NCBI GenBank assembly: GCA_016278435.1 | Contig: JADQBU010000416.1 | Coordinates: 1 to 24,000 of the forward strand | Length of the DNA stretch: 24,000 nucleotides | Origin: Halanaerobiales bacterium | GTDB lineage: Bacteria; Bacillota; Halanaerobiia; Halanaerobiales; JADQBU01 | Direction of reading: 5' to 3' | The notes under the pieces: model-generated | Told to the model about the DNA's origin: nothing | The model's input: the letters and a program-made list of their open reading frames with translations, nothing else | The model's database searches: none | Program-made: the position numbers and the translations under genes | Part shown: piece by piece, positions 372-17,923 of the stretch | How the letters are laid out: each line of letters starts with the position of its first letter | How positions within the stretch are numbered: the stretch's first letter is position 1

Positions 372-1529
372 TTAAATTGCATGATATTCACTTTCCAGTA
401 CAGTTTCACCAACATTTTTAAGTCCACCAATTATCCTGCTGATAACTTTGTTGGCTCCTTCTATCGATAATCCAGGTAATAATATAAGGTATTGATTTTT
501 ATTCCAGCGAGTTATGATATCTCCCTTGCGTAAGTTGTTCTTCAGGGCATTAGCCATAAATTCCATTTTACTGTTTATATCATCATTACCCTTAAAGGTC
601 AGCGAACAGATTATAGCCGGAATATGATTTCTTTCCCGTTTCCTCTCCTCAAGTTTATATAACATCCTGAAAATATCAGGCTCACAGAAGAAAGCGCCAT
701 CAACTTTCTGCCTGTTTTTTAATTGCTCCTGTATATTTAAGATACCTTCTGAATCTTCAGATGTTTCACCGTGAATTTTTTTATAAAGGTCCTGCATAGC
801 CGGTAGTGGTCTAATTTCCAGTTCCCGGTAAAATAATGTAGATGCATATTCATAGTGAGCCCGGGCCTGGGCAGTTTTGCCTTCCTCCAGTAATGCCTCC
901 AGATAACCAAGGTGAATTTTTTCTTCCAGTGGTTCAATCTGAAAAGCCGTACGGCAAAGTGTTATTATTTCAGAATTTTTGTTAAATTGTTTTAAAAGTT
1001 CAATCTGCTGTAAAATACTTTCTGTATATAACCAGTGGTAATTATTTCTAAAAGATATTACCCAGTTATCATATGGTAACTCCATTAAATAATCACCTTT
1101 ATAAATATTAAAAGCATTCCTGTATATATCAATCGCCTGTTGAGGAGCAGTCTCAATATTATTGTAAGCCTGTTGACAGAGATTTTCAAATTCTTCAACA
1201 TCCAGCCAGAATTTTGAATTTATATTAAACCCATATCCACCCTGACTACTATTTATGTAAGGTATGGTAGATTTGAAATCTTCTGGTATTAGTAATTTTC
1301 TCAAGCGGTAGACCAGATTGGTAAGGGCATGTTTAGGGTCACTGAAGTCCATTTCCGGGAATAAATTCTCCATGATTACCTCGGGGTGAATATTCCTACC
1401 ACGATTTGAGATTAAATATTTAAAAAGAATCCAGGGCTTGTCATTAGTTTTTTCAGCCTCCAGTAATGAGTCTTTATTTCTTTTAATCATAAATTGGCCC
1501 AGTGTGTAAATTTCTAATACATTATCCAA
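372..1529 (-). CDS. SARP/BTAD-family transcriptional activator (OmpR-type winged helix + BTAD/TPR) fused to a C-terminal degenerate GGDEF-like domain
   Basis: 385-aa ORF with TTG start and GGGGGGTGA SD 7 nt upstream. The N-terminus LEIYTLGQFMI...LFKYLISNRGRNIHPEVIMENLFP...LTNLVYRLRKLL matches the SARP wHTH pattern. WLDVEEFENL...AIDIYRNAFNIYKGDYL...EIRPLPAMQDLYKKI matches BTAD. The C-terminus RKGDIITRWNKNQYLILLPGLSIEGANKVISRI aligns to RxxD-x5-GGDEF-AILLP of diguanylate cyclases, with GGDEF replaced by NKNQY. Confidence 0.8.
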   Translation of the reverse strand: MDNVLEIYTLGQFMIKRNKDSLLEAEKTNDKPWILFKYLISNRGRNIHPEVIMENLFPEMDFSDPKHALTNLVYRLRKLLIPEDFKSTIPYINSSQGGYGFNINSKFWLDVEEFENLCQQAYNNIETAPQQAIDIYRNAFNIYKGDYLMELPYDNWVISFRNNYHWLYTESILQQIELLKQFNKNSEIITLCRTAFQIEPLEEKIHLGYLEALLEEGKTAQARAHYEYASTLFYRELEIRPLPAMQDLYKKIHGETSEDSEGILNIQEQLKNRQKVDGAFFCEPDIFRMLYKLEERKRERNHIPAIICSLTFKGNDDINSKMEFMANALKNNLRKGDIITRWNKNQYLILLPGLSIEGANKVISRIIGGLKNVGETVLESEYHAI

Positions 1530-1678: not shown

Positions 1679-2179
1679 TCAGGAATTATTGTCAGTAAGT
1701 ACATTTTCTGGACTTGAAAAAATATCAATTGAAGTTCTAATACTTACATTGGACTGCAAGATATTGCCATTACCCGAACTCATCTGTACCGTTGTTATAC
1801 CTGTAGCATTGGTAAAAGCATTGCCTCCAATAGTATTATACCTGCTAACATATGTATCATGTGATGAAACATTACTTATAGAAGCCCTGATCTCCTGTGT
1901 TTTTACATCATCGGGAATTACATCAGAACTACTATACCCTTCAAAACTACTGTTAGCCTGCATAATATTACCATTCCCCGCCACCATCTGAACCATGAGT
2001 CCTCCAGTAACATCCTCAAGAGCAGTATCACTGACTTGATTAAACTGGCTTGTATAAGTCTCATAACTTTCAACATTAGATAGCTCAGCTATCATATCCT
2101 GTGGAGCTGCTGCAACTGAAAAAGCCAACGATACAACTACCAGTAGACACATTACAATAATGGAAATTAGTTTTTTCAC
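1679..2179 (-). CDS. Secreted 2-repeat N/Q/G/S-rich protein (repeat-family paralogue A), candidate fibre/amyloid subunit
   Basis: 166 aa with GTG start and AAGGAGGC SD 8 nt upstream. Signal peptide MKKLISIIVMCLLVVVSLAFSVAA|AP. Two ~45-aa repeats: SNVESYETYTSQFNQVSDTALEDVTGGLMVQMVAGNGNIMQANSS (nt 1946..2080) and SNVSSHDTYVSRYNTIGGNAFTNATGITTVQMSSGNGNILQSNVS (nt 1742..1876). Confidence 0.85.
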   Translation of the reverse strand: MKKLISIIVMCLLVVVSLAFSVAAAPQDMIAELSNVESYETYTSQFNQVSDTALEDVTGGLMVQMVAGNGNIMQANSSFEGYSSSDVIPDDVKTQEIRASISNVSSHDTYVSRYNTIGGNAFTNATGITTVQMSSGNGNILQSNVSIRTSIDIFSSPENVLTDNNS

Positions 2180-2270
2180 GGCTAAATGCCTCCTTTTTCT
2201 GCTGGTTTTTTATTTTAAAAAAATTATTATTACTCTAATAATAAAACATGTCCTTTTATTTATCTTCTTC

Positions 2271-2299
2271 ATTATACCATAGGATATGGGAAAAATCTA
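2271..2299 (-). promoter_or_regulatory. Candidate promoter for the 166-aa repeat-protein gene (extended -10)
   Basis: Minus strand reads TAGATT (2299..2294), 17 nt spacer, TGgTATAAT (TG 2279..2278, TATAAT 2276..2271), about 90 nt upstream of the GTG at 2179. Confidence 0.4.
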
Positions 2300-2325
2300 C
2301 ACTTTTTCGAAAATAATTTATAATT

Positions 2326-2365
2326 TGTGATTAATATGTGATTTAATTATGATGTAAACATGAAT
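2326..2365 (+). promoter_or_regulatory. Four heptamer direct repeats at exact 11-bp periodicity (candidate SARP binding array) in the divergent intergenic region
   Basis: TGTGATT (2326..2332), TGTGATT (2337..2343), TATGATG (2348..2354), CATGAAT (2359..2365). A further TGTGATT lies at 2420..2426. The last phased repeat is followed by 8 nt and then TATTTT (2374..2379). Confidence 0.4.
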
Positions 2366-2543
2366 ATTCCCAGTATTTTACTGTTATTTATTGTAATATT
2401 ATCTTATTTCCTCATGCTGTGTGATTGAATTTTATTCAAAATTAAATTAATATGAGATTTTTAGATGATAACCCTGAGATGTTTTCTTGTTACACTTATA
2501 ATAAGTTGAAGAATTAAAGATACCCGGAAGAGGGTGAACATAG

Positions 2544-2777
2544 ATGAATGTCCAGAATGGTATTTGTCCAATAAATGGCCTGCGGTGTAATTCCACCTTT
2601 AATATACGTGTAATATATCGTGATAATACCAGCTGGCAGGGAGAAATACAGTGGCTGGAAGGTAAACAAACCAGATACTTCCGCAGTCTCCTGGAGATGA
2701 TCATGTTGATGAATGAGGCCATGAAAACCACTGACCAACCACAGGCTAACTTTGCTTTTAGAAACTGGGATTCATAA
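2544..2777 (+). CDS. Small cytoplasmic hypothetical protein (77 aa) with an SWQG...FRS motif
   Basis: Best of three overlapping ORFs here: AGAGGGTG SD about 8 nt before the ATG, and same strand as the downstream cluster. The motif FNIRVIYRDNTSWQGEIQWLEGKQTRYFRSLLEMIMLMNEAM resembles small uncharacterised clostridial proteins (from memory). No signal peptide. Confidence 0.5.
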   Translation: MNVQNGICPINGLRCNSTFNIRVIYRDNTSWQGEIQWLEGKQTRYFRSLLEMIMLMNEAMKTTDQPQANFAFRNWDS

Positions 2778-2921
2778 ATCATAAGTATATAAAAATCATA
2801 AAAACTTTCTTTTTAAGGAGGTGAGGGGCCGGTAAGAGATGTCCGATTGGAATTAAAAAGTAATTTTCTCTGTCACTGTATTAAGTTAAAACATCTTTTA
2901 AAAACAAAAGGAGTGTATTAA

Positions 2922-3611
2922 ATGAAAAAATTATTGATTCTGGGTGTAATGGTTATGTTTGTACTGGCTCTGGCTCTGCCAGTAGCAGCCAGATCTGATG
3001 GTGACCTTGATGCCACAATAGGTGCAATGGAAGTAGTTGCTGTTTATAGTAATGAAGAAGCCCTTTTCATTGATAAAACTGACTTAGGGTTCGGAGTTGG
3101 AATTGGAGTTCACGGTGATTATTTGAGCGGTTTCCTGGTAGGTGGAGGATATTATCATGACTTTGACCTCGGTTACTGGGAAGATACATTTGCCCTGTTG
3201 AAAGTTGAGGCAACCGGCCCGGTCAGTAAAGAAGATTACGGAATCAGATTTGATAAAATTGATGACGAAGCCTTCGAAAATGCAACCGGTGTTACAACAG
3301 TTCAGATGTCTGCCGGTAATGGTAACATTCTCCAGTCTGCACAAAATGTTCTAGTCTTGAATGATGTTTGTGATGCAGACCTGCAAGAAGTTAATGCTAA
3401 AATTTATAAAACCGTATCTTTTGACGATTACGACAAGCGTTTTGACAAAATTTCTGGAGAAGCTTTCCAGAATGCAACAGGTATTACCACTGTTCAGATG
3501 TCTTCCGGTAACGGCAATATTCTCCAGGCCGGTCTCAATGTTCAGGTCGAACTCCCGAATTTTGTATCTGATGTCGACGGAATGGGAGATTACACAGTAG
3601 TTACCTATTAA
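2922..3611 (+). CDS. Secreted 2-repeat N/Q/G/S-rich protein (repeat-family paralogue B), candidate major fibre/amyloid subunit
   Basis: 229 aa with AAAGGAG SD. Signal peptide MKKLLILGVMVMFVLALALPVAA|RSD. Gly/aromatic-rich N-terminal region LGFGVGIGVHGDYLSGFLVGGGYYHDFDLGYW. Two repeats: DYGIRFDKIDDEAFENATGVTTVQMSAGNGNILQSAQNV (3234..3350) and DDYDKRFDKISGEAFQNATGITTVQMSSGNGNILQAGLNV (3423..3542). Confidence 0.9.
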   Translation: MKKLLILGVMVMFVLALALPVAARSDGDLDATIGAMEVVAVYSNEEALFIDKTDLGFGVGIGVHGDYLSGFLVGGGYYHDFDLGYWEDTFALLKVEATGPVSKEDYGIRFDKIDDEAFENATGVTTVQMSAGNGNILQSAQNVLVLNDVCDADLQEVNAKIYKTVSFDDYDKRFDKISGEAFQNATGITTVQMSSGNGNILQAGLNVQVELPNFVSDVDGMGDYTVVTY

Positions 3612-3644
3612 TATAAGTATTTTTAAACTCTTGGGTAAAGTGAA

Positions 3645-3670
3645 CAGGCGGGGTTAAACTGCCCCGCCTG
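3645..3670 (+). terminator. GC-rich 9-bp hairpin just after the subunit gene (attenuator or RNA-stabilising stem; no clear U-tract)
   Basis: CAGGCGGGG (3645..3653), 8-nt loop, CCCCGCCTG (3662..3670). Followed by AATCATAAAAAT, which is not a T-run. Confidence 0.3.
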
Positions 3671-3703
3671 AATCATAAAAATACCTGTTGGGAGTGACAT
3701 GAT

Positions 3704-4390
3704 ATGAAGAGTATTAAAGTTGTTTTCCTGTTTATACTAATATTACTAATAACCAGTTATGTTGCCAGTGCAGGGACGGTAACCTTTAAAGTATCTACTA
3801 TGGGGTTACGTATGAATACAGAGATTGAAAGTTATACAGAAATTCAATTTCGAGGAGTAGTAAAACAGAAATTAGATATTAGCTGTGGTTCAGCTGCCCT
3901 GGCTACAATCTTCCAGTATTATTATGGAGACCCGGTAGAAGAAGAAGCTATCATTGAAAGTATGGTCAATGGCAGAACTAAAGAAGAAATTATAGCAGGT
4001 GAAGGTTTTTCATTACTGGAACTTAAAACCGCTGCGGAAAAATGGGGTTATTCAGCTTTTGGTCTCAGCGGTTCCCTTGCTGCCCTGGCCCAGCTCAGTA
4101 TTCCCTCAATAGTCCTTTTGGAAACCGGTGATATTCCACACTTTGTAGTAGTCAGGAAAGTTCTGAAGGACAGCATTCTTGTTGCCGATCCTGCAATGGG
4201 TAATATAACTATTTCAAAATCAGATTTTATTAAGCAGTGGAATGGCATTCTGCTGGCAATAGAAGGCAAACAGCAACCAGTTTCAAATTATCAGAAATAT
4301 ATGCCACTGACTGCTCCGACCAGGCTAGAGGTTAGTAGATTCAACAGAAATAACTGGAGAGTAATACCCTTTATTCCATCAGAATTTTAA
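3704..4390 (+). CDS. Stand-alone, signal-peptide-bearing C39-family cysteine peptidase (FapD-like architecture)
   Basis: 228 aa. Signal peptide MKSIKVVFLFILILLITSYVASA|GT. C39 pattern VVKQKLDISCGSAALATIFQYYYG with Q55 and C61 (TGT 3884..3886). IPHFVVV with H146 (CAC 4139..4141). ILVADP with D162. No fused ABC-transporter domains. Confidence 0.85.
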   Translation: MKSIKVVFLFILILLITSYVASAGTVTFKVSTMGLRMNTEIESYTEIQFRGVVKQKLDISCGSAALATIFQYYYGDPVEEEAIIESMVNGRTKEEIIAGEGFSLLELKTAAEKWGYSAFGLSGSLAALAQLSIPSIVLLETGDIPHFVVVRKVLKDSILVADPAMGNITISKSDFIKQWNGILLAIEGKQQPVSNYQKYMPLTAPTRLEVSRFNRNNWRVIPFIPSEF

Positions 4391-4465
4391 TTTATTTTAA
4401 ACTTCTTAAATTTTAGATTAGAAATTTAAACATTTTATTCAAGTTGAGTAAAAGGAGGAAAAATA

Positions 4466-4855
4466 ATGAAAAATATTTTCAAGTTTTCAACTTTAATTTT
4501 AGTCTCAGTGTTTATGTTTATCCTGGGGGTTTCTGCTCTGGCACTTGATTTGCCGGCTGACTTTACAACACTCTCAAATGATGAACTATCTGAAGTTAGT
4601 GGTCAGGGGCGTTTTTTTATCAGAAATATCGATAATCTCGATTTTGATGCTGATATTGATAGTGCACAATTCACCTATAGTGATATATCCGATGGTGCTT
4701 TTAAGGATGCCTCAGGTTTAATTTCCGTAATTCAGGTTCCCGGAGATCGTAACTGGATTTGTGTCTACCTTGATCTTGATCTAAGTATAATAAATACTTA
4801 TGGTACTACTACAATAAATCTTTCAGACCAGCAATTCGAGTTACCTCCACTTTAA
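4466..4855 (+). CDS. Small secreted protein with one degenerate copy of the cluster repeat
   Basis: 129 aa with AAAGGAGGA SD. Signal peptide MKNIFKFSTLILVSVFMFILGVSALA|LD. QFTYSDISDGAFKDASGLISVIQVPGDRNWICVYLDLDL (4667..4783) aligns to the AFxNATGxTTVQMSSGNGNILQ repeat. Confidence 0.75.
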   Translation: MKNIFKFSTLILVSVFMFILGVSALALDLPADFTTLSNDELSEVSGQGRFFIRNIDNLDFDADIDSAQFTYSDISDGAFKDASGLISVIQVPGDRNWICVYLDLDLSIINTYGTTTINLSDQQFELPPL

Positions 4856-4868
4856 AGTTTTCTAAACT

Positions 4869-4909
4869 GGTAATCCCCCTTTTTACCGGGGGGATTACCT
4901 CTATTTTAA
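4869..4909 (+). terminator. Rho-independent terminator-like hairpin
   Basis: GGTAATCCCCC (4869..4879), 9-nt loop, GGGGGATTACC (4889..4899), then TCTATTTTAAG. Confidence 0.6.
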
Positions 4910-4989
4910 GTAAATATTTAATGATATTTTTTTTGCAGGAATTTTCCATTTTTTTGCGAACTATATATATACCAATATAAGAAAGGGGT

Positions 4990-5865
4990 ATGAAAATGAT
5001 TAAAAAAACTGCAATTATTTTCTGTCTAGCTATTATGTTAATACTGGTACCTCAGATGGCCGGAGCCAAAGTGCCAGTCGAGTTACAGTGGGATGTTACA
5101 TATACCCATAGTTCCAACAACCAGCTTTTATTAAATGGTTATACTGTTTATAATGTTATAACTGTTGGTGAAATTGAAGTTACTAAAGTCAAAAGAGACA
5201 TTATAATGCCTTCCTTAATTGTTAGATGCGGCTCTCCGGAGAAAAATATTGAATTTATTATTCCTTACAGTTACCGGCGGGATTATGTTTTAGATCGTGA
5301 TAACATTAATGGAGATGAATATGAAGAATCCACTGTTGATGGTATGGGACTGGGAGATATCAGGATCAATTTGAATGCAGCAGCACCTATAAAAAATACC
5401 ACTGTAACCCTGGGAGTTAAAACTACAACAGGAGTCAGTGATGTAGGTGATGATGAAATTCCACTGGGAAGCGGTCACCTGGGAATCAGAGCTGGAGTGT
5501 CCCATATGATGCCTCTGGACCCGGTAGTGTTATTTGGAAGTGCTAATTACTACTGGAATCTGGAAAATGATGCTGTTGACCCCGGAGATACTATTCAGTA
5601 TTCATTAGGAATGGCCTATGCCCTTAACCCCAGATTTTCCATTAATGCCAGGCTAGAACAAGCCGTTACCACACAAACTAGAGAGGATGGTGTAAGACAG
5701 CCTGAAACAGGTGTAAATTCCGCTATGTTCTATGTGGGCGGTAGCTTTGCTGATGGGGGAAGCACTTCATCTTATGACCTGTCAGTGGGGATTGGTATGA
5801 CAGAAGATGCTCCTGATATGTCAATCCAGTTCAGCCGTCCCATCGAAATTAAAAGACAGAATTAA
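4990..5865 (+). CDS. Outer-membrane beta-barrel protein, 'MetA-pathway/transporter'-like (PF13557-like) family
   Basis: 291 aa. Signal peptide MKMIKKTAIIFCLAIMLILVPQMAGA|KV. Alternating-hydrophobic strands. Motifs GMGLGDIRINL, LGVKTTTGVSD and IPLGSGHLGIRAG are typical of this barrel family (from memory). The start may be the second ATG (4996), which has better SD spacing. The C-terminus ...IQFSRPIEIKRQN lacks a terminal aromatic residue. Confidence 0.7.
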   Translation: MKMIKKTAIIFCLAIMLILVPQMAGAKVPVELQWDVTYTHSSNNQLLLNGYTVYNVITVGEIEVTKVKRDIIMPSLIVRCGSPEKNIEFIIPYSYRRDYVLDRDNINGDEYEESTVDGMGLGDIRINLNAAAPIKNTTVTLGVKTTTGVSDVGDDEIPLGSGHLGIRAGVSHMMPLDPVVLFGSANYYWNLENDAVDPGDTIQYSLGMAYALNPRFSINARLEQAVTTQTREDGVRQPETGVNSAMFYVGGSFADGGSTSSYDLSVGIGMTEDAPDMSIQFSRPIEIKRQN

Positions 5866-5888: not shown

Positions 5889-5925
5889 GGTGCTGCCTTA
5901 AGTTTGGGGCAGCACCGTTTATTTT
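5889..5925 (+). terminator. Rho-independent terminator of the plus-strand cluster
   Basis: GGTGCTGCC (5889..5897) pairs with GGCAGCACC (5908..5916), followed by GTTTATTTT. Confidence 0.7.
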
Positions 5926-7952: not shown

Positions 7953-8204
7953 TTGAAAAATATGAGTATCGCTAATAAACTTAATCTTATTATTATCAGC
8001 ATGTCCGTAAAACAGAAGGTTTTAGACAATATCGGCCAGGACTTCATTGAGATGAATATATATGAAGAATATATTGATTATCTAATGAAGGTTAATCTAA
8101 ATATACTAGATTCAAAATCTTCTAAGGATGTTTATAAATCCTTAATTGACGATTATATAAAGGGTAATCTAAGAAAAGCAGAATTTATTTTAAAGAATCT
8201 ATAA
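7953..8204 (+). CDS. Hypothetical small protein (83 aa)
   Basis: TTG start with AGGAGG SD 8 nt upstream (alternative ATG at 7962). No recognisable motif. Confidence 0.5.
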   Translation: MKNMSIANKLNLIIISMSVKQKVLDNIGQDFIEMNIYEEYIDYLMKVNLNILDSKSSKDVYKSLIDDYIKGNLRKAEFILKNL

Positions 8205-9284
8205 TATCTTTTTAACCCTATCTCTGCCAGAGTTCTTTGCTAGATAGAGGGCATTATCAGCTCGGGTTAAGAAAATTTTTATACTATCATTGTTTTGAAG
8301 TTGGGTTACACCCAGGCTGACTGTAATTTTATTTTTCACAGGTGGTATTCTTAGCTGAGCTATTCTTTTTCTAATCCTCTCTGCAACCTTTATGACATCT
8401 ATCAAATTAGTTTCTGTTAAAAGTATAGCAAACTCCTCTCCCCCTATTCTGGCTGCCATATCCTCTTTTCTTGTTTCCTCCTTAAAAACTTTACCTACTT
8501 CTATTAAAACTTCATCTCCAACATTATGTCCATAGGAGTCATTAATATTTTTAAATTTATCTATATCGGCCATAACCAGATAAATCGAATGTGATTTTCT
8601 CTGGGCCAGAGAATACATTCTTTCCAGATATTCCATAAAGTATCTCCGGTTGAAAATTCCTGTTAATTCATCTGTCTTTATCATCTTTTTCATCTTAAGA
8701 TGAAGTGCTTGTAATTCTTTTGATTCCTTCATTGCTCTGAGAATATAGTATGTAATTAATGTATAGGCCGGTATTGTAAACAATTGAATTGCCAAACGGA
8801 GCACCATGTTATCAAGTAGTGGGACACCATAAGCCCTGTTAAGTACCATTGGGATAGCCAGAGCTGAAACCAGTAAATGAGAAACAGTAATCGAAATAAA
8901 AACTGCTTTTAAACTCATTTTATTGAACATATAATTGTATATATAGCCAGCCATAAATCCCCTTAAAATCGTAATCAGGGTAAAGACAAACATATACTCC
9001 AGGTCACTATGCCAGATAAAAAAAGAAATTAGATCAACCAGCCCACCTATAACTCCCCCCCATAGGGGCCCCAGTAAGATACCTCCAAAAATGATGACAG
9101 GAGGACGCAGACTCAGTCTTGCTGCTTCTTCCAGAGGATATATGGAAAACATTATACTGTTACCAGGGTTATCAAAAAATACAGCTATACAGACCAGAAT
9201 AAGTAATACTTTTAAGGTATAAATCCAGTTAAAATTTCCCGGACGAACATCATTATTTTTCGTTTTTGTACCAATAAATAACAT
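8199..9284 (-). CDS. Membrane-bound diguanylate cyclase: N-terminal ~6-TM domain resembling ECF-transporter S components, plus GGDEF domain (GGEEF, I-site RKED)
   Basis: 361 aa. RKEDMAARIGGEEFAILL (GGEEF = nt 8430..8444), preceded by DELTGIFNRRYF and ADIDKFKNINDSYGHNVGDEVL. The N-terminal RPPVIIFGGILLGPLWGGVIGGLVDLISFFIW is ECF S-component-like (from memory). Confidence 0.9.
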   Translation of the reverse strand: MLFIGTKTKNNDVRPGNFNWIYTLKVLLILVCIAVFFDNPGNSIMFSIYPLEEAARLSLRPPVIIFGGILLGPLWGGVIGGLVDLISFFIWHSDLEYMFVFTLITILRGFMAGYIYNYMFNKMSLKAVFISITVSHLLVSALAIPMVLNRAYGVPLLDNMVLRLAIQLFTIPAYTLITYYILRAMKESKELQALHLKMKKMIKTDELTGIFNRRYFMEYLERMYSLAQRKSHSIYLVMADIDKFKNINDSYGHNVGDEVLIEVGKVFKEETRKEDMAARIGGEEFAILLTETNLIDVIKVAERIRKRIAQLRIPPVKNKITVSLGVTQLQNNDSIKIFLTRADNALYLAKNSGRDRVKKIL

Positions 9285-9572: not shown

Positions 9573-9818
9573 TTTCTTCTCTCCCTTGAACTTAATTTAT
9601 ATAATGTTAATTCTACATAATTACTGAAATTCCTTTTTTTAGGTTATTATTTACAAGACACATTACAAATTCATTAGGACTTAAGTACTATTCTACTAAA
9701 AAACTCCATTTACCGCAAATAAAATTTCTTTTAACACCTGGTTAATGAAGGTCTTTAGGTCTTTATAACGAATATTGGTAATATAAGTATATTTACTGGA
9801 ATAAACGGGGTGTTCTGT

Positions 9819-11321
9819 ATGAAATTTAAAAAGGAAACCAGGATTACTTTTTTATATATAATAATCGGACTCGGCTGGATATTCTTTTCCGATTATTTTC
9901 TATTATTATTTTTTAAAGACCAGAACATGATTAACAGGTTTCAATCTTATAAAGGAATATTCTACGTTTTAATTACTGCCTATCTATTTTATCTTATTCT
10001 CCATAGAACCTTCAAAAATATCAGAATGCATCAACGAAAACTAAAATCAAGTCATGAATTACTGGCCTTAGATAATGAGCAATTTAGAATGTTAAATAAG
10101 AAAATCAGCAAAGCTAATCAGGAATTACAGAGACAGAAAGAAAAATTAAGTGAAAGTTATCAATTGCTTGAGGCAGATAACGAAGAATTTAAAGAACTCA
10201 ATAAAGAGTTGGAAGAATCTTACAACGAAATTAATGAGCTGGCAAATAATATAGAGAAAATGATCAACATAACTTCAGGGTTGAACAGTTTATCGGTAGA
10301 TAATACGGACCTTTTTCTTTCTGATCTCTTAAATACAGCTCTAAAATTAATTGATAAAGCTAATCAGGGGGCAATCGCCAGAATAATCGATGATAATTTA
10401 GTTTTTATTGATTCAGTTGACTATGAGATTGAAAAATTAAATCAACTTAACTTGAAAAAAAGTTTCGTAAATAAAATTAATGGTATTAAAACATTAACTG
10501 AGCTTTTTAAAGATGATATCTCAGCATTTGAAAACAGTAAATTTTATGAGAGATATCAAAAACTATTGCGAGAAATAAATGATTCTATAATTGTAAGTTT
10601 TAATAATGGTCAGGAAAAAGCAGGGGTTATCTGTTTATTGATAGATAAGCGTCACAAACAAAAATTTGATGAAAATAGCCATAGAACCATGTCAGCTTTC
10701 AGCAGTCTGGCCAGTGTTTTTTTCAAGATTCAAAAATATCATCAAGTTGAGGAAGAATTCCAGGAAGAATTAATCGTTGCTATTACCGGTTTTCTTGAAT
10801 TACATGATACATATACAGATGGGCATTCCAGGGAAGTTGCTGAATTATCAAGAAAAATCGCCAGAGAAATGAACCTTTCTGACCAGGAAGTAGAAAAAGC
10901 GTACTGGGCCGGTATGATCCATGATATCGGTAAAATCTTAATTCCTGAAACTATTTTAGTTAAAAATGGTCCTTTAACCAGTGTAGAATATAATAAGATA
11001 AAAAAACACCCCATATGGGGTTATCAGGCTTTAAAACATTCTGGTAGGTTGAAGGAAATAGCAGAAATAATTCTATACCATCATGAACGCTGGGATGGAA
11101 GTGGTTATCCTTATGGATTAAAAGAAGATGAAATACCTTTGATAGCCCGGATTTTATGTGTGGCTGATAGCTGGAATGCTATGCGCTCTAATCGACCTTA
11201 CCGCTCACATCTACCTATAAATAAAGCTTTAGAAGAACTTAGAGATAATAATGGAAGTCAATTTTGTCCAGAAGTAGTAGAGGCCTTCTTTGCAATAATG
11301 GGAGAACAGATTGCAATTTAA
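9819..11321 (+). CDS. HD-GYP domain c-di-GMP phosphodiesterase with N-terminal TM segments, coiled coil and a sensor-like domain
   Basis: HDTYTDGHSREVA...GMIHDIGKILIP...HHERWDGSGYPYGL...ADSWNAMRSNRPYR. The ORF track starts at GTG 9810, but ATG 9819 has the better SD (GGGGTG). Confidence 0.9.
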   Translation: MKFKKETRITFLYIIIGLGWIFFSDYFLLLFFKDQNMINRFQSYKGIFYVLITAYLFYLILHRTFKNIRMHQRKLKSSHELLALDNEQFRMLNKKISKANQELQRQKEKLSESYQLLEADNEEFKELNKELEESYNEINELANNIEKMINITSGLNSLSVDNTDLFLSDLLNTALKLIDKANQGAIARIIDDNLVFIDSVDYEIEKLNQLNLKKSFVNKINGIKTLTELFKDDISAFENSKFYERYQKLLREINDSIIVSFNNGQEKAGVICLLIDKRHKQKFDENSHRTMSAFSSLASVFFKIQKYHQVEEEFQEELIVAITGFLELHDTYTDGHSREVAELSRKIAREMNLSDQEVEKAYWAGMIHDIGKILIPETILVKNGPLTSVEYNKIKKHPIWGYQALKHSGRLKEIAEIILYHHERWDGSGYPYGLKEDEIPLIARILCVADSWNAMRSNRPYRSHLPINKALEELRDNNGSQFCPEVVEAFFAIMGEQIAI

Positions 11322-11572: not shown

Positions 11573-12649
11573 TTATAATTGTTGTGAGTTATCACTTGCA
11601 CGCTTTACTATCGATATTATTAACACAATCCCTGGTATCATAATTTGAAAGGGAAAAGAATAGATAAAATAGTTTTCGACAGACCAGCGTATTGTTTCAA
11701 ATGTACTGTCATACAACCAGATTGCTACTGTTATTACTAAAGCGGAGACCGGTAGTACAAACAGCTTATATCTGTTTAGATTAAAAACCTGAACCAATCC
11801 CTGAGTTGCCGCATAAATACAGATAGAAACCTTGCACATGCCTCCTATTAAGTAGTTTACAGCTACCACAGCATCAAGATTATACCCGGGTATTAGTCTG
11901 GTGGTGATTGTTGAAGGAAAAATTGTTTCGAATAACATATCAGCTCCCAGGATAAAGAAATTCCTTAGCAAGATTATTAATAAAACCGTACCCATAACAA
12001 ACAAGGCCAGAAATGATGTCGTTAGGAGATCTTTTTTCCTATTCAAGGCTGGAAAGACCATCAAAAATATTACCAGTTCACCAAAGGGAAACCCCAGCAG
12101 AACAATTGATGTTTTTATAATCGGACCCAGTCCCCTGACAAGCATCGGTTTATAACTGTTAATATCAAAAAATTGAAATAAAAATGCCGTAACCAGAATT
12201 ACCATCACCGGGATAATCGGAATGAAGAATTCTGCTGTTCTGGCCATAACCTCCAGCCCGCTGCGCACCGCATAAGCTATGGTTATTATCATTATTATAA
12301 TTGTAAAAGTAATTGGGGTCTCGGGATAATCTGTTATGACGATATATTCTCCAAAATTTCTGATAACGATGGCGGCCAGGTGCATAAAATACCAGATATA
12401 TAATAGGGCAATAGCTTTACCGATAATCCTTCCGAAGTTTTTCTCCAGGATACCGATTAGTGTCTCCCCGGAATTGAGGTTAGCAATCAATACATAACCG
12501 CCTAATAAAAAAAAACCCCCCACCCAGCTGGCCAGATAAGCTATCCAGCAGTCCTGTTTAGCTGCCGACGCCGGGTTTATTACAACCCCAAACAAAAAAC
12601 CCATTATCAAAACAGCTAGTTGAAATCTGGATATTTTCTCGACTAACAC
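11573..12649 (-). CDS. Spore germination receptor B subunit (GerAB/GerKB-family permease-like)
   Basis: 358 aa with about 10 TM segments. The N-terminus ISRFQLAVLIMGFLFG... is typical of Ger(x)B. It is the last gene of a gerA/gerC operon. Confidence 0.85.
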   Translation of the reverse strand: MLVEKISRFQLAVLIMGFLFGVVINPASAAKQDCWIAYLASWVGGFFLLGGYVLIANLNSGETLIGILEKNFGRIIGKAIALLYIWYFMHLAAIVIRNFGEYIVITDYPETPITFTIIIMIITIAYAVRSGLEVMARTAEFFIPIIPVMVILVTAFLFQFFDINSYKPMLVRGLGPIIKTSIVLLGFPFGELVIFLMVFPALNRKKDLLTTSFLALFVMGTVLLIILLRNFFILGADMLFETIFPSTITTRLIPGYNLDAVVAVNYLIGGMCKVSICIYAATQGLVQVFNLNRYKLFVLPVSALVITVAIWLYDSTFETIRWSVENYFIYSFPFQIMIPGIVLIISIVKRASDNSQQL

Positions 12650-12654
12650 ATGTA

Positions 12655-12876
12655 TTACCTCCCTGGCAGCAAACCAATAATCTTCTCAATTAATACAGCC
12701 GGGCTTTGAGGTGCCCTGTCCAGTATTAAGAGGATACCAATAGTTAAACCGCAAAGCATAATAATTGAATATAAGATTACTGCCACCGGTTTATTGTTTA
12801 ACCCCAGTAACTCCTTTAAATCTAACAAGGTAATTAAGATAAATACAGCTATTAATAGAAATAACATATTAATCAC
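12655..12876 (-). CDS. Small two-TM membrane protein within the ger operon (possible germinant-receptor D-type subunit)
   Basis: 73 aa with two hydrophobic helices. Its ATGA overlaps the gerC stop by 4 nt, and it ends 6 nt before the gerB start. Confidence 0.6.
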   Translation of the reverse strand: MINMLFLLIAVFILITLLDLKELLGLNNKPVAVILYSIIMLCGLTIGILLILDRAPQSPAVLIEKIIGLLPGR

Positions 12877-14138
12877 TTCCCAGCATCTGTATAAGGCTGC
12901 CCGGATTTTTTAATCAAAGATGAACTAGTAGTTGTCCACTGAACCTTAATTTCCACCGGAGCATTACTGAAGACCTCTTCCCAGTTATCCTTTATTTTCT
13001 CCCAGTACTCATAATAATCACCGTAGACTATTTTTACAAAGCGGAAGAAATCACTCTGGTAATCCTGTTGGGCTTTGTCAACTGCATCCTGGATATTCTT
13101 TTTAATCACAGCCTTCACCCTACTTTCCATCTCCTTAACCATTTCCGGTGTTGTCAGATCACCTTTCCCCTGCTGGTCGGCCATTCTTCCCGAAGCTTTA
13201 ACCTCTATCATTAACTTTAACTCATCATCCCTGACCTCTCCCTTAATATTCCCGCTGGATTTAACTATTTCAAAGGCCACCTTTTTACCCACTTCAAGGG
13301 GATTGTCGACGTTAATAATCCCGCTTTGCACCTCATCGATGGCAAAAATCAATCCCCTGGTTTCAAAGGGATCCAGATAGCCTTTCAGTTTACCCTTTTT
13401 TATTACAGCAGTTCCCTCAATCTTTAGATCCTTGATTTCCAGTTTGCCTTCATCCTGTTTTTTACCTCCACTATCTTCTTGGGAATCTTTATTTTCCTGT
13501 TTCTGAATAACCCCGATGGCCAGTGAATTGCCCCGGATACGAATGCGCCTGACGGCATCAAAAAATGTGGTCTTTTTTATCTTGGCCAGGGCATCATTGT
13601 TTTTAAGTATTGACCTAATATGCAAGGCCGGTATATTCTCTAACTCACTCTGGGCCTGAAGAACCTCCCGGGCGGTAATCCCCCGGGTAATTAAAAGGTC
13701 GGCCATCCTTTCTGTCTCTTTATCCCTTTCAAATAAATCGAAGATATCTGTAACCCCTTCCCTGGCAACCTCTTCCCCGATAATCATTAACTGTACATGG
13801 CTGAAATAAGCCTTTCTGTTTAAGGTTGTCAACTGATTCCTGATGGCTGTGAAAACCGTCTCTCCGGTGGAGGAATAAACCCAGACCGGGTCTTCCGTAC
13901 TACCCTGACTTATAGCTTTAATAGTACCCGGTTTGACCATCTGCAGGGTTAACAAAATATCTCCCCTATCTGTCCTGTCAAACCCCACGGCGGTGACTAT
14001 GGCTATTTCTGATAAATCAACATTATTCCAGCAACCTGATAAAAGAAAAGTCAAACTGAACAGTATAATAAACAAAATGATCTGCTTGTTTTTTATTTGG
14101 ATTTTTGTTTTAACGATTTTTATCATCTTTAACACCAC
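12873..14138 (-). CDS. Spore germination receptor C subunit lipoprotein (Ger(x)C family)
   Basis: Lipobox FLLSGC followed by WNNVDLSEIAIVTAVGFDR, typical of GerAC/GerKC. The true start may be ATG 14126. Confidence 0.9.
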   Translation of the reverse strand: MVLKMIKIVKTKIQIKNKQIILFIILFSLTFLLSGCWNNVDLSEIAIVTAVGFDRTDRGDILLTLQMVKPGTIKAISQGSTEDPVWVYSSTGETVFTAIRNQLTTLNRKAYFSHVQLMIIGEEVAREGVTDIFDLFERDKETERMADLLITRGITAREVLQAQSELENIPALHIRSILKNNDALAKIKKTTFFDAVRRIRIRGNSLAIGVIQKQENKDSQEDSGGKKQDEGKLEIKDLKIEGTAVIKKGKLKGYLDPFETRGLIFAIDEVQSGIINVDNPLEVGKKVAFEIVKSSGNIKGEVRDDELKLMIEVKASGRMADQQGKGDLTTPEMVKEMESRVKAVIKKNIQDAVDKAQQDYQSDFFRFVKIVYGDYYEYWEKIKDNWEEVFSNAPVEIKVQWTTTSSSLIKKSGQPYTDAGK

Positions 14139-14211
14139 TTTGTCTTGACCGGCTTAACTTAACGGATTGCTTTATCAAGCAATGATATAGATTACATGGT
14201 TGCTCATTTTT

Positions 14212-15810
14212 TTAGTCCTCTTTTGTCTTGATATCCCTCTTCATCCGGTAGCCCTTTTCAATGTAGTCAAAGTGGTCTACCATCAATGAACGTGGTCTAA
14301 ACCACATTGCCCAGATGGGCACCCGGATAAAGGTGTCTTTTAAGTCCATACCATAGAGGGGAGAAAAGGGGGCCATATACGGGATGCCAAAGGATCTTAA
14401 AGTACACATGTGAATATAGATAATAATATAGGCCAGCATTATCCCCATATATCCCATTATATTGGCAGCGATAAGCAAAAAAATACGGATAATGGGAATT
14501 GTCCCTCCCAGCGGCGGCAAAATAAAACTTGTAATGGCTGTTATAGCAGTCACCATTATCACCGGATTGCTGGCAATCCCTGCCTCGACTGCAGCCTGCC
14601 CCAGTACCAATGCCCCCACAATACTGATTGCCTGACCAATTGGACGGGGCATTCTCACTCCCGCTTCTCGTAACAGCTCATAGGTAACGCCCATCAACAG
14701 GGTTTCGGTAAACACTGAAAAGGGAATCCCCTCTCTTGACTGAGCGATAGTTAACATCAATTTAAAGGGAATCACGTCCTGATGGAAGGCTACCGAAGCC
14801 ACATAATAAGCCGGCAGCGAACTGGTTATCAATAAAGCCAGCAACCTGAGCCAGCGTACCAGGGTGGAAAAATAGGGACGGGAATAATAGTCCTCAGCTG
14901 AAATAAGCGATTCGATAAATAGATGGGGCATTGTCAGCACAAAGGGGGTTCCGTCACACATAACTGCTGCTCTGCCTTCCAGAATCTTACCGGCGACTAC
15001 ATCCGGTTTCTCACTATTAGCTATTGTCTGAAATATTGAAAAGGGTGCATCTTCAATGAATTCCTCAAGATAACCCGATTCTAAGATAGCATCTGTTTTA
15101 ATCTTTTCCAGGCGTCTTTTCAAAGTTCGGACAATGTCCTCATGGATTAAACCTTTAATATAACAGATGCAGATATCTGTGTTTGTCTGTTTGCCCAGAG
15201 TCATCATTTCGAATTTAAGATTGGGATTTTTAATCTTCCTTCTTAACAGAGCACTGTTTGTCCTGAGGGTCTCGGTAAACCCTTCCCTGGGTCCACGGAC
15301 AACCACCTCTGTATCCGGTTCTTCCACACCCCTGGTTTCCCAGCCCCAGGTTCCCACTTTCAGGGCAACCCTTTTCCCGTCCACAAATATTACAGTATCT
15401 CCTGTTAAAATTAAGTTGACTGCCGGCTTAAGCCGGGTAACATCAGATATTTCACTGACACTTAATACTTTTTCTTTGAGGTAATTTATAACATCTATAT
15501 AGTTATTATCTCCCGGTATATCTGTTTCGCAGGTAGACTCCATCATAATTGGTTTTATAACATCCCGATTAATCAGGTCCTTGTCAACTAACCCGTCCAG
15601 ATAGGCAATAACCAACCGGGTATGGTTTTTTGCTGGCAGCACAACCTCTCGAAGATTAAAATCACTGCATTCGCTGAAGATCTCTAGTAAAAGTGTTTTA
15701 ACCTTATCAATACTTTCCGGCAACAATTCTTCAGCCTGGTTCTTTTCTTTATTATCGTTCTGCCGCTTTAATTTTAAAAACTCGAATATCCGCAAAAATT
15801 TTTTAAACAC
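14212..15810 (-). CDS. Spore germination receptor A subunit (GerAA/GerKA family)
   Basis: 532 aa with GTG start. A soluble N-terminal domain is followed by C-terminal TM helices. Motifs DGLVDKDLINRDVIKPI, VRGPREGFTE.L..N..LLRRKI and ESGYLEEFIED are typical of the family. Confidence 0.9.
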   Translation of the reverse strand: MFKKFLRIFEFLKLKRQNDNKEKNQAEELLPESIDKVKTLLLEIFSECSDFNLREVVLPAKNHTRLVIAYLDGLVDKDLINRDVIKPIMMESTCETDIPGDNNYIDVINYLKEKVLSVSEISDVTRLKPAVNLILTGDTVIFVDGKRVALKVGTWGWETRGVEEPDTEVVVRGPREGFTETLRTNSALLRRKIKNPNLKFEMMTLGKQTNTDICICYIKGLIHEDIVRTLKRRLEKIKTDAILESGYLEEFIEDAPFSIFQTIANSEKPDVVAGKILEGRAAVMCDGTPFVLTMPHLFIESLISAEDYYSRPYFSTLVRWLRLLALLITSSLPAYYVASVAFHQDVIPFKLMLTIAQSREGIPFSVFTETLLMGVTYELLREAGVRMPRPIGQAISIVGALVLGQAAVEAGIASNPVIMVTAITAITSFILPPLGGTIPIIRIFLLIAANIMGYMGIMLAYIIIYIHMCTLRSFGIPYMAPFSPLYGMDLKDTFIRVPIWAMWFRPRSLMVDHFDYIEKGYRMKRDIKTKED

Positions 15811-16747: not shown

Positions 16748-17923
16748 TTATTGTTTTTTAGATCCAGTAACTAAATACATGGTCTTCATTTTCTTCTCAG
16801 CTTCAATGAGCATCTCTTCAGTAACATGTGAATAAGTGTCAATGGTAACAGTAATTGAAGAATGACCGAGGATCTGTTGCAGTATTTTTATAGAACCGCC
16901 ATTCTGTAAAAATAATGTTGAAAAGGTATGGCGGGTATCGTGGAATCTTATCTCTGGAAGTCCGGCTTCTTTAATGACCCTTTTAAACTCTCTAAACAAG
17001 TTCCTGGGGTCTATAGGATTTCCTATTTTATTGCTTCCAACTAGATCATTTTTTTTATTATATGCTTCCCCTAATGCCAGTTTGTTTTCCCCTTGCTTTA
17101 TTTTATGCCTTTTTAATTCTGTCACAACATCATCTGTTATGGGTATGGTCCTATTTCCCGCAGCAGTTTTAACTTTCTTAAATATCAAGCCCTGATCTGT
17201 ACGGACAAGTTGCCTATTAACCTCGATTCTTCTTTTATCAAGTGAAATATCCTTCCACTTTAATCCCAATAATTCCCCTCTTCTCATACCAGTATTTAAT
17301 GCTAGATAATGGAGTATAAAGCAATCATACCCCCTGGCAGTCTCCAGAAATTTGTTAACCTGACTTTTATCCCAGGTATGCAACTGCTTCTCATCCTGTT
17401 TTTTGGGGACTTCAACAGCCTTGCAGACATTGTTAGTTATCAATCGTTCTTTAATGGCCTGCTCAAGGGCTGCGTGTAATGTCTGATAAATATATTTAAC
17501 AGTCCTGGGGGATAAACCACCATCTCCATCTATCCTGCCTTCTTCCAGTTTATAATTGAGCAATTCCTGGACCTGCCGGGTTTTCAGTTCTTTCAGCTTT
17601 AAATCACCAATTTCTGGCTTTAAATGATTCCTGATCATAACTTTATAGTTATTGTAAGTGCTATATGCTAATGATGATTTGCGGCCTTCAATCCAACTGT
17701 CTAGCCATTCAGATAACTTCATATTACTTGGTTCAACATAGGTCCCATCAAATAACTCCTTCTTTAAATCGGTCATTTTTCGGGCTACTTCCTTGCGTTC
17801 CTTACCATATATATACTTCCGTTTCGGTGCTCCTGTCTTGGGATTTACTCCAATAGTGACTGCGCCCATCCACCGGCCATCATTCCGTTTAACAATAGTT
17901 CCTTCCCCATTACCTCTGGCCAT
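16748..17923 (-). CDS. int: Tyrosine recombinase, phage-type integrase
   Basis: 391 aa. N-terminus GEGTIVKRNDGRWMGAVTIG...RKYIYGKERKEVARKM is typical of Firmicute phage integrases. The catalytic region has GMRRGELLGLKW, RFHDTRHTFSTLFLQNG, LGHSSITVTIDTYSHV (R...HxxR...Y). Confidence 0.95.
   Translation of the reverse strand: MARGNGEGTIVKRNDGRWMGAVTIGVNPKTGAPKRKYIYGKERKEVARKMTDLKKELFDGTYVEPSNMKLSEWLDSWIEGRKSSLAYSTYNNYKVMIRNHLKPEIGDLKLKELKTRQVQELLNYKLEEGRIDGDGGLSPRTVKYIYQTLHAALEQAIKERLITNNVCKAVEVPKKQDEKQLHTWDKSQVNKFLETARGYDCFILHYLALNTGMRRGELLGLKWKDISLDKRRIEVNRQLVRTDQGLIFKKVKTAAGNRTIPITDDVVTELKRHKIKQGENKLALGEAYNKKNDLVGSNKIGNPIDPRNLFREFKRVIKEAGLPEIRFHDTRHTFSTLFLQNGGSIKILQQILGHSSITVTIDTYSHVTEEMLIEAEKKMKTMYLVTGSKKQ

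Follow-up and report, generated by a model that had tools for sequence, protein, structure and literature searches.

A compact, remotely homologous gene cluster that probably encodes a Fap functional-amyloid system in a diderm, spore-forming Halanaerobiales bacterium

Only two bacterial secretion systems dedicated to amyloids are, to our knowledge, well understood, and Fap is one of them. Here, we describe a Fap-type gene cluster in a 24,000-nucleotide (nt) stretch of DNA from a Halanaerobiales bacterium (contig JADQBU010000416.1), which we refer to as the window. Five genes between positions 1679 and 5865 make up the cluster, four of them forming the main operon on the plus strand and the fifth being encoded divergently:

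1679–2179, minus strand: second Fap-type subunit of 166 amino acids (aa), divergent from the main operon and upstream of the regulator gene on the same strand
2922–3611, plus strand: first-gene Fap-type subunit, 229 aa
3704–4390, plus strand: FapD-type periplasmic C39 cysteine peptidase, 228 aa
4466–4855, plus strand: mini FapE-position subunit, 129 aa
4990–5865, plus strand: FapF-type outer-membrane beta-barrel, 291 aa

An earlier inspection of the letters alone (the sequence-only reading) had called these five open reading frames (ORFs), including the divergent 166-aa paralogue, and all of them were recovered with the same coordinates, lengths and order. The same holds for the Sec-type signal peptides that had been ascribed to all five products. 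These were assigned by direct reading of the N-termini, each of which shows a basic n-region, a hydrophobic core and an AxA-type site (...SVAAA/P, ...PVAA/R, ...VASA/G, ...SALA/L and ...MAGA/K, the slash marking the site).

FapF is a 12-stranded outer-membrane barrel, and the product of the last gene resembles it in sequence and in fold. The NCBIfam FapF model matches the window barrel at 1.2e-19 over model positions 127–414 of 420, a phmmer comparison with the PDB FapF entries 5O65/5O67 gives 1.3e-14, and the hidden Markov model (HMM) of the barrel family matches Aeromonas caviae FapF at 5.7e-44. With an AlphaFold (AF2) model of the barrel (predicted local distance difference test, pLDDT, 87.5; predicted TM-score, pTM, 0.82), the 18 best PDB matches in Foldseek are all FapF chains (E 4.7e-15, TM 0.72); the next fold match is the COG4313 uptake channel Pput2725 (4RL8; 1.6e-9, TM 0.6). 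The sequence-only reading had linked both this barrel and FapF to PF13557, which is correct: the barrel matches PF13557 at 6.6e-9 (36.6 bits against a cut-off of 22) and FapF-like homologues carry PF13557 too, so that PF13557 describes the superfamily and FapF a closer branch. In sequence as in fold, FapF is a closer relative of the barrel than COG4313 is, which speaks against an objection that had been raised as possible, namely that the barrel belongs to a substrate-uptake family. The protein consists of the beta-domain only, with its first strand beginning ~3 residues after the signal peptide, and its Firmicute homologues are all equally short at their N-termini, whereas most other homologues are 380–500 aa long. 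A TTG motif (aa 146–148) lies where FapF has PTG. At the other end, most Firmicute homologues terminate in PYYF or PFYF, which resembles an aromatic beta-signal, whereas the window barrel ends in ...RPIEIKRQN; this odd C-terminus may have truly diverged or may reflect a difference in sequencing or assembly.

The second gene of the operon encodes a stand-alone C39 peptidase, as the sequence-only reading had it: Pfam Peptidase_C39 (PF03412) matches at 3.1e-24, with 85.7 bits against a cut-off of 22. Among all curated families the best match is NCBIfam FapD (2.1e-38, model positions 4–204 of 224), which outranks FilB and the peptidase domains of bacteriocin ATP-binding cassette (ABC) transporters. 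The peptidase family HMM matches A. caviae FapD at 6e-45, and the PDB peptidase domain of PCAT1 matches the 228-aa protein at 4e-8. The catalytic residues Q55/C61/H146/D162 are intact and conserved in 12 homologues, and the enzyme carries a signal peptide and no transporter fusion. All 12 Firmicute FapD-like peptidases have a ~40-residue tail after the C39 domain that ends in an invariant '...EF', and in Aeromonas FapD a 'LLEFGF' motif lies near, not at, the C-terminus. As a speculation, this tail might be a docking or gating element for a plugless barrel.

Both subunits contain two internal repeats, a feature already noticed from the letters and now confirmed as far above chance: in local alignments the 229-aa protein reaches z = 28 and the 166-aa protein z = 19, and none of 2000 shuffles scores as high. 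In the 229-aa subunit, the signal peptide is followed by a Gly/aromatic-rich extension (aa 24–95) and repeats at aa 101–146 and 165–210 (nt 3222–3359 and 3414–3551). The 166-aa subunit consists of a signal peptide and two imperfect repeats at aa 36–79 and 104–148 (nt 1943–2074 and 1736–1870). The repeat unit spans ~45 residues, with the core ..Y.R.D.I.G.AF.NATGITTVQMSSGNGNILQ. Both proteins had been labeled N/Q/G-rich, which fits the repeat cores, where the G/N/Q core SSGNGNILQ is conserved, and does not fit the mature proteins as a whole, these being mainly acidic (D+E 16.5% versus K+R 5.4% in the 229-aa protein). Such strong acidity is consistent with a halophilic host. The extension of the 229-aa protein (GFGVGIGVHGDYLSGFLVGGGYYHDFDLGYWED) is absent from the 166-aa paralogue, and the family members P0005 and P0011 carry different aromatic/acidic extensions at this place.

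Among 5.8 billion sequences, the repeat family comprises 14 clusters (the 166-aa protein falls in P0006), and all 14 are tagged with Pfam FapBC (PF27129). This tag was precomputed, and the link to FapB/C was tested separately by four profile comparisons. The family profile retrieves 394 proteins from a representative library of 1.84 billion, and sampled FapB- or FapC-sized proteins among these match NCBIfam FapB and FapC at 1e-14 to 6e-27. The profile aligns to the FapB-like set with hhalign (99%, E 4.5e-18); the FapB-like set in turn aligns to the solved FapC fibril subunit (9U4U, 9NQD) over all three repeats (2.2e-8). The Firmicute family HMM also matches A. caviae FapC across three repeats (8.2e-12). 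NCBIfam FapB itself matches the 229-aa protein at 9e-5 and, weakly, the 166-aa protein (0.0068). A match to a characterized non-fiber family or an ordinary globular fold had been named as a finding that would speak against a fiber; the repeat proteins match no globular family, and what they do match is FapBC, the FapB-like set and Aeromonas FapC.

The Firmicute repeat profile also finds giant, many-repeat proteins (P0015 with 3063 aa, P0016, P0017 and others) with up to 29 matched stretches, and a 1530-aa, 13-repeat protein adjoins a FapF-like barrel on a replicon of Indioceanicola (Alphaproteobacteria; L023 3–4592, minus strand). These giants suggest that the range of FapBC-repeat proteins may be much broader than what has been explored so far.

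The 129-aa protein occupies the position of fapE. It has a signal peptide (aa 1–26), the putative leader LSNDELSEVSGQG (aa 36–48, nt 4571–4609), which is followed by RFF, and a repeat at aa 69–109 (nt 4670–4792). The leader motif L-x-x-x-E-L-x-x-[IV]-x-G-x-G is invariant in an alignment with eleven homologues and appears to be of the double-glycine type, the pattern of leaders cut by C39 peptidases; the leader of the Limnochordia homologue matches GG-leader lantibiotic models (E 0.0039). The single degenerate repeat proposed by the sequence-only reading is marginal in the lone sequence (z = 3.5) and clear at the level of the family, which aligns to the family of the subunit repeats (hhalign 97.6%, E 4e-12); with the signal peptide excluded from the alignment, the 129-aa family aligns to the FapB-like repeats at 94% (E 1.2e-7). 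NCBIfam FapE is the best match for five of eight homologues (E 0.01–0.03) and gives no match to the window protein. By eye, Aeromonas FapE follows the same two-part logic: its signal peptide is followed by PELADGELAHLRGRY, and GAGLVQVVQLEGSGNSSVNQ lies close to the C-terminus. By inspection alone, an N-terminal L..xEL..L.G motif and a repeat-like C-terminal segment are common to Aeromonas FapE and the 129-aa family. Small proteins with a leader, a GG site and one terminal Fap repeat also adjoin C39 genes in Cupriavidus and Photobacterium. A DUF6160 match to the 129-aa protein (0.0046) was discarded, being reproduced in none of eight homologues and having nothing relevant in the literature.

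FapB-like intermediates (P0057, P0079, P0096 and others) contain 'LSEADLGQ..G' or '...ILEQATGG' in the linker before their last repeat (A2 alignment columns ~205–225), resembling the double-glycine-type leader of the small protein. This linker motif may likewise be recognized by C39, or it may just belong to the repeat architecture. One metagenome scan for such intermediates found nothing.

The order subunit, C39, small protein, barrel recurs in every related locus with enough sequence, and it is also that of the A. caviae fapBCDEF reference operon. The sequence-only reading had let its proposal stand or fall with the co-conservation of peptidase, barrel and repeat genes, and this is seen in every related locus, as is a small secreted protein between the C39 and barrel genes. 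Most loci also have a divergent BTAD regulator beside the cassette. Several Halanaerobiales metagenome-assembled genomes (MAGs) carry two complete tandem cassettes of regulator, subunit, C39, small protein and barrel (L007 3403–10404; L015 3280–10464; L006/L014), whereas the window has one cassette and an extra subunit gene. The only relatives that a pattern-based scan with one genome for each GTDB species turned up are in MAGs, five of them Halanaerobiales, one Limnochordia and one unclassified Bacillota; such a scan does not prove absence elsewhere, e.g. in Negativicutes.

Halanaerobiales and Limnochordia have an outer membrane, and the window itself encodes an outer-membrane barrel according to the AlphaFold model, fitting a diderm host. 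The GerA-family operon that the sequence-only reading reported elsewhere in the window is present (GerA/GerAB/GerAC at 11573–15810, minus strand; GerA 1.9e-177). Its GerA is closest to Halanaerobiales proteins (Halothermotrichaceae 70%; Selenihalanaerobacter, Halanaerocella and Halanaerobaculum 59–63% identity), with GerA of one Petroclostridium MAG also at 63%. Judging from this operon and from the affinity of its GerA, the host is a spore-forming Halanaerobiales bacterium. The GC content of the cluster (33–40%) matches its surroundings, and the nearest non-Firmicute barrels are only ~30% identical to that of the window; in these sequence features we see no sign of a recent transfer of the cluster. 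More tentatively, the confinement of the cluster to Halanaerobiales and Limnochordia, together with the lack of a detected close donor among Proteobacteria, would favor a long-standing presence of Fap-type secretion in outer-membrane-bearing Firmicutes over recent transfer.

Taken together, three components of the cluster are homologous to their Fap counterparts, a fourth carries a Fap-type repeat, the synteny is strict, and the host lineage is clear. We consider it likely that the cluster is a compact, remotely homologous Fap functional-amyloid system (fapB/C-D-E-F) of a diderm, spore-forming Halanaerobiales bacterium. The sequence-only reading had proposed a Fap-analogous export system in a diderm spore-former; its core is supported, and 'analogous' turned out to be too weak a word, since the evidence shows homology to Fap.

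A number of observations weigh against this interpretation. Every component scores below its NCBIfam equivalog cut-off: 70 bits versus 700 for FapF, 132 versus 330 for FapD, and 22 versus 190 for FapB. The barrel has no N-terminal coiled coil, linker or plug helix. Both window subunits, and all 14 family members, have two repeats and not three. Compared directly with Pseudomonas FapC in the PDB, the Firmicute repeat profile is not significant (E 2.9; the top PDB matches in that search are spurious Rab GTPases), and pairwise repeat similarity to Pseudomonas FapC is weak (z mostly 1–2.5); the homology of the subunits is therefore real but remote. The AF2 model of the 229-aa protein is of low confidence (pLDDT 50); in favor of the interpretation, it is all-beta with five strands per repeat, and FapC likewise has five short strands per repeat layer (PMC12392863). 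In a fold search with this model FapC fibrils rank first and second, not significantly, and these matches are at most suggestive. For the small protein, the leader LSNDELSEVSGQG stays below the cut-off of TIGR01847 (12.9 versus 15.7 bits) and has G-x-G in place of GG, as do its homologues throughout. Its family HMM does not match Aeromonas FapE significantly, and the FapE matches of the five homologues are individually marginal and come from mutually related sequences.

Further features of the locus concern its expression:

372–1529, minus strand: SARP-type regulator, 385 aa, with an OmpR-type winged helix, a BTAD domain and a degenerate GGDEF domain
3645–3670, plus strand: GC-rich hairpin of 9–10 bp directly 3′ of the 229-aa subunit gene, a candidate attenuator or mRNA 3′ stabilizer
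4869–4899, plus strand: 12-bp hairpin in the gap that separates the barrel gene from the small gene, with a T-rich tail; probably an intrinsic terminator or attenuator
5889–5916, plus strand: terminator-like hairpin of 12 bp with a T-rich tail at the end of the operon

The regulator matches Pfam BTAD (3.2e-17), GGDEF (7e-5) and Trans_reg_C (9e-4). Its GGDEF domain has lost the active site, with NKNQY in place of GGDEF (aa 343), and has kept the RxxD motif in register (RKGD, aa 334; RKGDIITRWNKNQY); the motif 'LRKGD.ITRW....Y' is conserved among homologues. The retained RxxD motif in a degenerate GGDEF domain suggests that the regulator could sense cyclic di-GMP (c-di-GMP). A divergent BTAD homologue (~45% identity) adjoins the cassette in L005, L006, L007, L012, L013 and L015. 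In three contigs from biogas fermenters (L002–L004), a sigma-54 enhancer-binding activator upstream replaces the BTAD regulator; the stop-to-stop barrel ORF of these contigs is longer (~368 aa), although the alignment shows only a modest N-terminal extension. Among the hairpins, a strong one after the subunit gene occurs at the same position in all related loci, and hairpins with U-tracts after the small gene occur at the same position in L006, L007, L010, L013 and L015. This conservation suggests that more subunit than machinery transcript may be made.

In the 740-bp region upstream of the operon, no Rfam riboswitch or RNA element was found at E <= 1, and promoter-like sites were not enriched over shuffles. 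A pair of 24-nt direct repeats (2330–2353/2446–2469, 79% identity) was considered as regulator binding sites and rejected as too weak to interpret in such AT-rich DNA. The divergent promoter region also contains a 77-aa ORF (2544–2777, plus strand) with a plausible ribosome-binding site and a GC content above that of its AT-rich flanks, which was also called on a Logan contig. We do not count it as a member of the system, as it has no Pfam or NCBIfam match and other loci lack a conserved counterpart upstream of the cassette.

The mechanism that we infer would comprise fiber or amyloid formation, leader cleavage, export through a plugless barrel and c-di-GMP control. Expression would be driven by the adjacent SARP/BTAD activator, and the hairpins after the subunit and small genes would set the subunit transcript above that of the machinery. 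By their signal peptides, the five proteins are predicted to enter the periplasm via Sec. There, the 229- and 166-aa subunits would stay unfolded and, by analogy with Pseudomonas, cross the outer membrane through the homologous FapF-type barrel. The FapD-type peptidase would cut the 129-aa protein at its LSNDELSEVSGQG leader motif, and the cleaved protein may then take the part of FapE, as a subunit that primes secretion, nucleates or anchors. More tentatively, and with less than even confidence on our part, we propose that the barrel suffices for export without plug and coiled coil, and that FapD turns the mini-FapE into a primer or anchor for the two-repeat subunits, making the cluster a naturally minimal Fap machine.

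Other readings of the locus place the same genes in a different function. In the one that survives best, which we nevertheless regard as unlikely, FapD/FapF-type machinery exports a non-amyloid product, such as a beta-solenoid adhesin, a thin 'Fil-like' pilus or an outer-membrane-anchored surface layer. FapD/FapF-like pairs do accompany varied cargo (FilB/FilC in Acinetobacter; glycine-rich or giant multi-repeat proteins in Cupriavidus and Indioceanicola), the HMMs of Dueholm et al. 2013 match many non-Fap relatives (PMC3792158), and the window subunits have only two repeats and a low-confidence repeat model. Against this, the repeats are specifically of the FapB/C type, as seen in the Pfam FapBC tag, the hhalign alignment and the Aeromonas FapC match, and they keep the SSGNGNILQ core, which in FapC forms a hydrogen-bonded Greek-key core (PMC12392863). 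Moreover, FilB and FilC score below FapD and FapF on the window proteins, and two-repeat variants of FapB and FapC are known in accepted Fap systems (PMC3792158).

A processed toxin or bacteriocin-like system, in which the C39 peptidase removes the leader from the small protein, and perhaps one from the repeat proteins, and antagonistic or signaling peptides leave through the barrel, seems to us very improbable. C39 peptidases and GG-type leaders are a hallmark of bacteriocin maturation, and the leader of the small protein weakly matches bacteriocin/lantibiotic leader models; however, the cluster has no ABC transporter, immunity gene or modification enzyme, its peptidase is periplasmic, FapD-like and free of any transporter fusion, its cargo consists of acidic 100–200-aa Fap-repeat proteins instead of short cationic or hydrophobic peptides, and the whole cassette is syntenic with fapB/C-D-E-F. 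Hardly credible is a COG4313/PF13557 channel for hydrophobic-substrate uptake that happens to lie beside unrelated secreted proteins without forming a functional cluster: the barrel does pass the gathering score of PF13557 ('MetA-pathway of phenol degradation') with 4RL8 as its second-best fold, but FapF is clearly better by sequence and fold, the gene order is the same in all related loci of at least two Firmicute classes, including tandem cassette duplications, and no aromatic-degradation genes occur near the barrel among the family matches of the window.

Other genes of the window touch the proposed Fap system at most indirectly. Between 2 and 5 kb downstream of the cluster lie genes for an active-looking, membrane-anchored diguanylate cyclase with GGEEF and RxxD motifs and an ECF-transporter-like N-terminal domain (8199–9284, minus strand) and for an HD-GYP-type phosphodiesterase (9810–11321, plus strand), either of which may act together with the degenerate GGDEF domain of the regulator. 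Further on, a tyrosine integrase (16748–17923, minus strand) and a 1317-aa ORF with no Pfam match (20013–23966, minus strand) occupy a stretch with a GC content of 45–48%, compared with 28–40% elsewhere; this stretch may be mobile or foreign and is unrelated to the cluster. An Rfam scan of the whole window (E <= 1) returned as its sole match CRISPR-DR35 inside gerAC (13343–13378, minus strand), which scores 26 bits (gathering score 35; E 0.28) and is almost certainly due to chance.

The sequence-only reading held that Fap had been described in Proteobacteria only, which was true of the survey by Dueholm et al. 2013, where Fap was confined to Beta-, Gamma- and Deltaproteobacteria (PMC3792158), and is now slightly outdated. 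Rouse et al. 2018 reported co-localized fapD/fapF homologues in five further phyla, unnamed in the main text (PMC6173800), and a December 2025 review with a GTDB-wide screen lists Fap and/or curli operons in Pseudomonadota, Desulfobacterota, Nitrospirota and 'even' Bacillota, the last of these in one line (PMC12822426). The available supplements of PMC6173800, PMC12822426 and PMC12392863 mention neither Firmicutes, Bacillota nor Halanaerobiales. Given the mention in PMC12822426 and the existing Pfam tags on the subunits, it is not new that Bacillota have Fap-like clusters at all. What is apparently undescribed in the literature we found is the restriction to outer-membrane-bearing orders, the minimal architecture, the leader of the mini-FapE and the type of regulator.

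Several of the deviations seen here have precedents in accepted Fap systems. Loss of fapA is the commonest variation among accepted operons (PMC3792158), and although nearly all FapB and FapC proteins contain three repeats (PMC12822426), FapC of Desulfohalobium and FapB of Aeromonas and Acidithiobacillus are two-repeat exceptions (PMC3792158). As for the barrel, Pseudomonas cannot secrete FapC without the coiled coil and plug of FapF (PMC5557850). Rouse et al. 2017 further located FapD in the periplasm, showed that secretion depends on its catalytic cysteine, and found no canonical C39 site in any Pseudomonas Fap protein (PMC5557850), which is why the cleavage target of FapD has been open since 2017. 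FapE is the suspected substrate, because its first ~70 residues are missing from mass spectrometry data and its C-terminus is repeat-like (PMC5557850).

The conserved leader directly after the Sec signal of the small protein offers a single defined site at which to probe this substrate question. If the tentative model of a minimal Fap machine is true, this lineage would show how Fap systems in general work at their core and which substrate, long sought, FapD cuts in them. A barrel lacking coiled coil and plug would challenge or refine the current gating model and provide a smaller system for structural and engineering work. Fap-type secretion confined to outer-membrane-bearing Firmicute orders would also bear on the debate over the origin of the Firmicute outer membrane, and it would extend Fap-type functional amyloids to halophilic, anaerobic spore-formers, whose very acidic two-repeat subunits could serve as salt-tolerant amyloid materials.

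Among known systems, the peptidase-containing ABC transporters PCAT1, ComA and LagD have the C39 fold and the Q/C/H/D residues in common with the window peptidase. Their C39 is a cytoplasmic domain of an exporter, whereas the window enzyme is free and periplasmic, with a Sec signal. The consensus of GG leaders, LSxxELxxIxGG, similarly resembles LSNDELSEVSGQG, but the window motif is G-x-G and the putative substrate would already have passed the inner membrane via Sec. Curli (CsgA/B, CsgG/E/F) are not homologous, the cluster having no CsgG-type lipoprotein channel, no Csg repeats and no match to a curli family in Pfam or NCBIfam, although the logic is the same: unfolded, Sec-exported repeat subunits, an outer-membrane channel, a minor nucleator or anchor and an extracellular amyloid.

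Closer to the cluster are non-canonical loci of Cupriavidus metallidurans (megaplasmid), Photobacterium/Vibrio (chromids) and Indioceanicola, as well as Acinetobacter Fil, which likewise pair a periplasmic C39 with a FapF-like barrel. Some of the non-canonical clusters encode proteins with a GG site and one C-terminal Fap-type repeat, the layout of the 129-aa protein. They differ from the window in their cargo (glycine-rich 500-aa proteins, 1530-aa 13-repeat proteins, or FilA/E/F) and in gene order or orientation, and their barrels mostly keep N-terminal extensions (344–502 aa). FilB and FilC models give 98 bits (cut-off 475) and 36 bits (cut-off 630) on the window proteins, lower than FapD and FapF, and FilA/E/F-like genes, present at the Acinetobacter locus, are absent from the window. 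We found no experimental characterization of non-canonical FapD/FapF-type or Fil systems in the literature.

The best counterpart is Fap itself, as known from Pseudomonas and other Proteobacteria (FapF, PDB 5O65; FapC fibrils, 9U4U/9NQD). The window cluster departs from it in its host, a diderm Firmicute and not a proteobacterium; in having no FapA, as no further conserved ORF was found in the cluster; in subunits with two repeats instead of the canonical three; in a barrel devoid of the trimeric coiled coil, linker and plug helix of Pseudomonas FapF; in a FapE-position protein that, at 129 aa, is about half the usual size and combines a near-canonical double-glycine-type leader with a single clear repeat; and in its putative regulation by a SARP/BTAD protein with a degenerate GGDEF domain. 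What the two have in common is the same order of subunit(s), C39 peptidase, small accessory protein and outer-membrane barrel, with two subunit paralogues like FapB and FapC, Sec signal peptides on all components, a stand-alone periplasmic C39 enzyme with an intact active site, FapB/C-type repeats with a G/N/Q core, and a homologous barrel.

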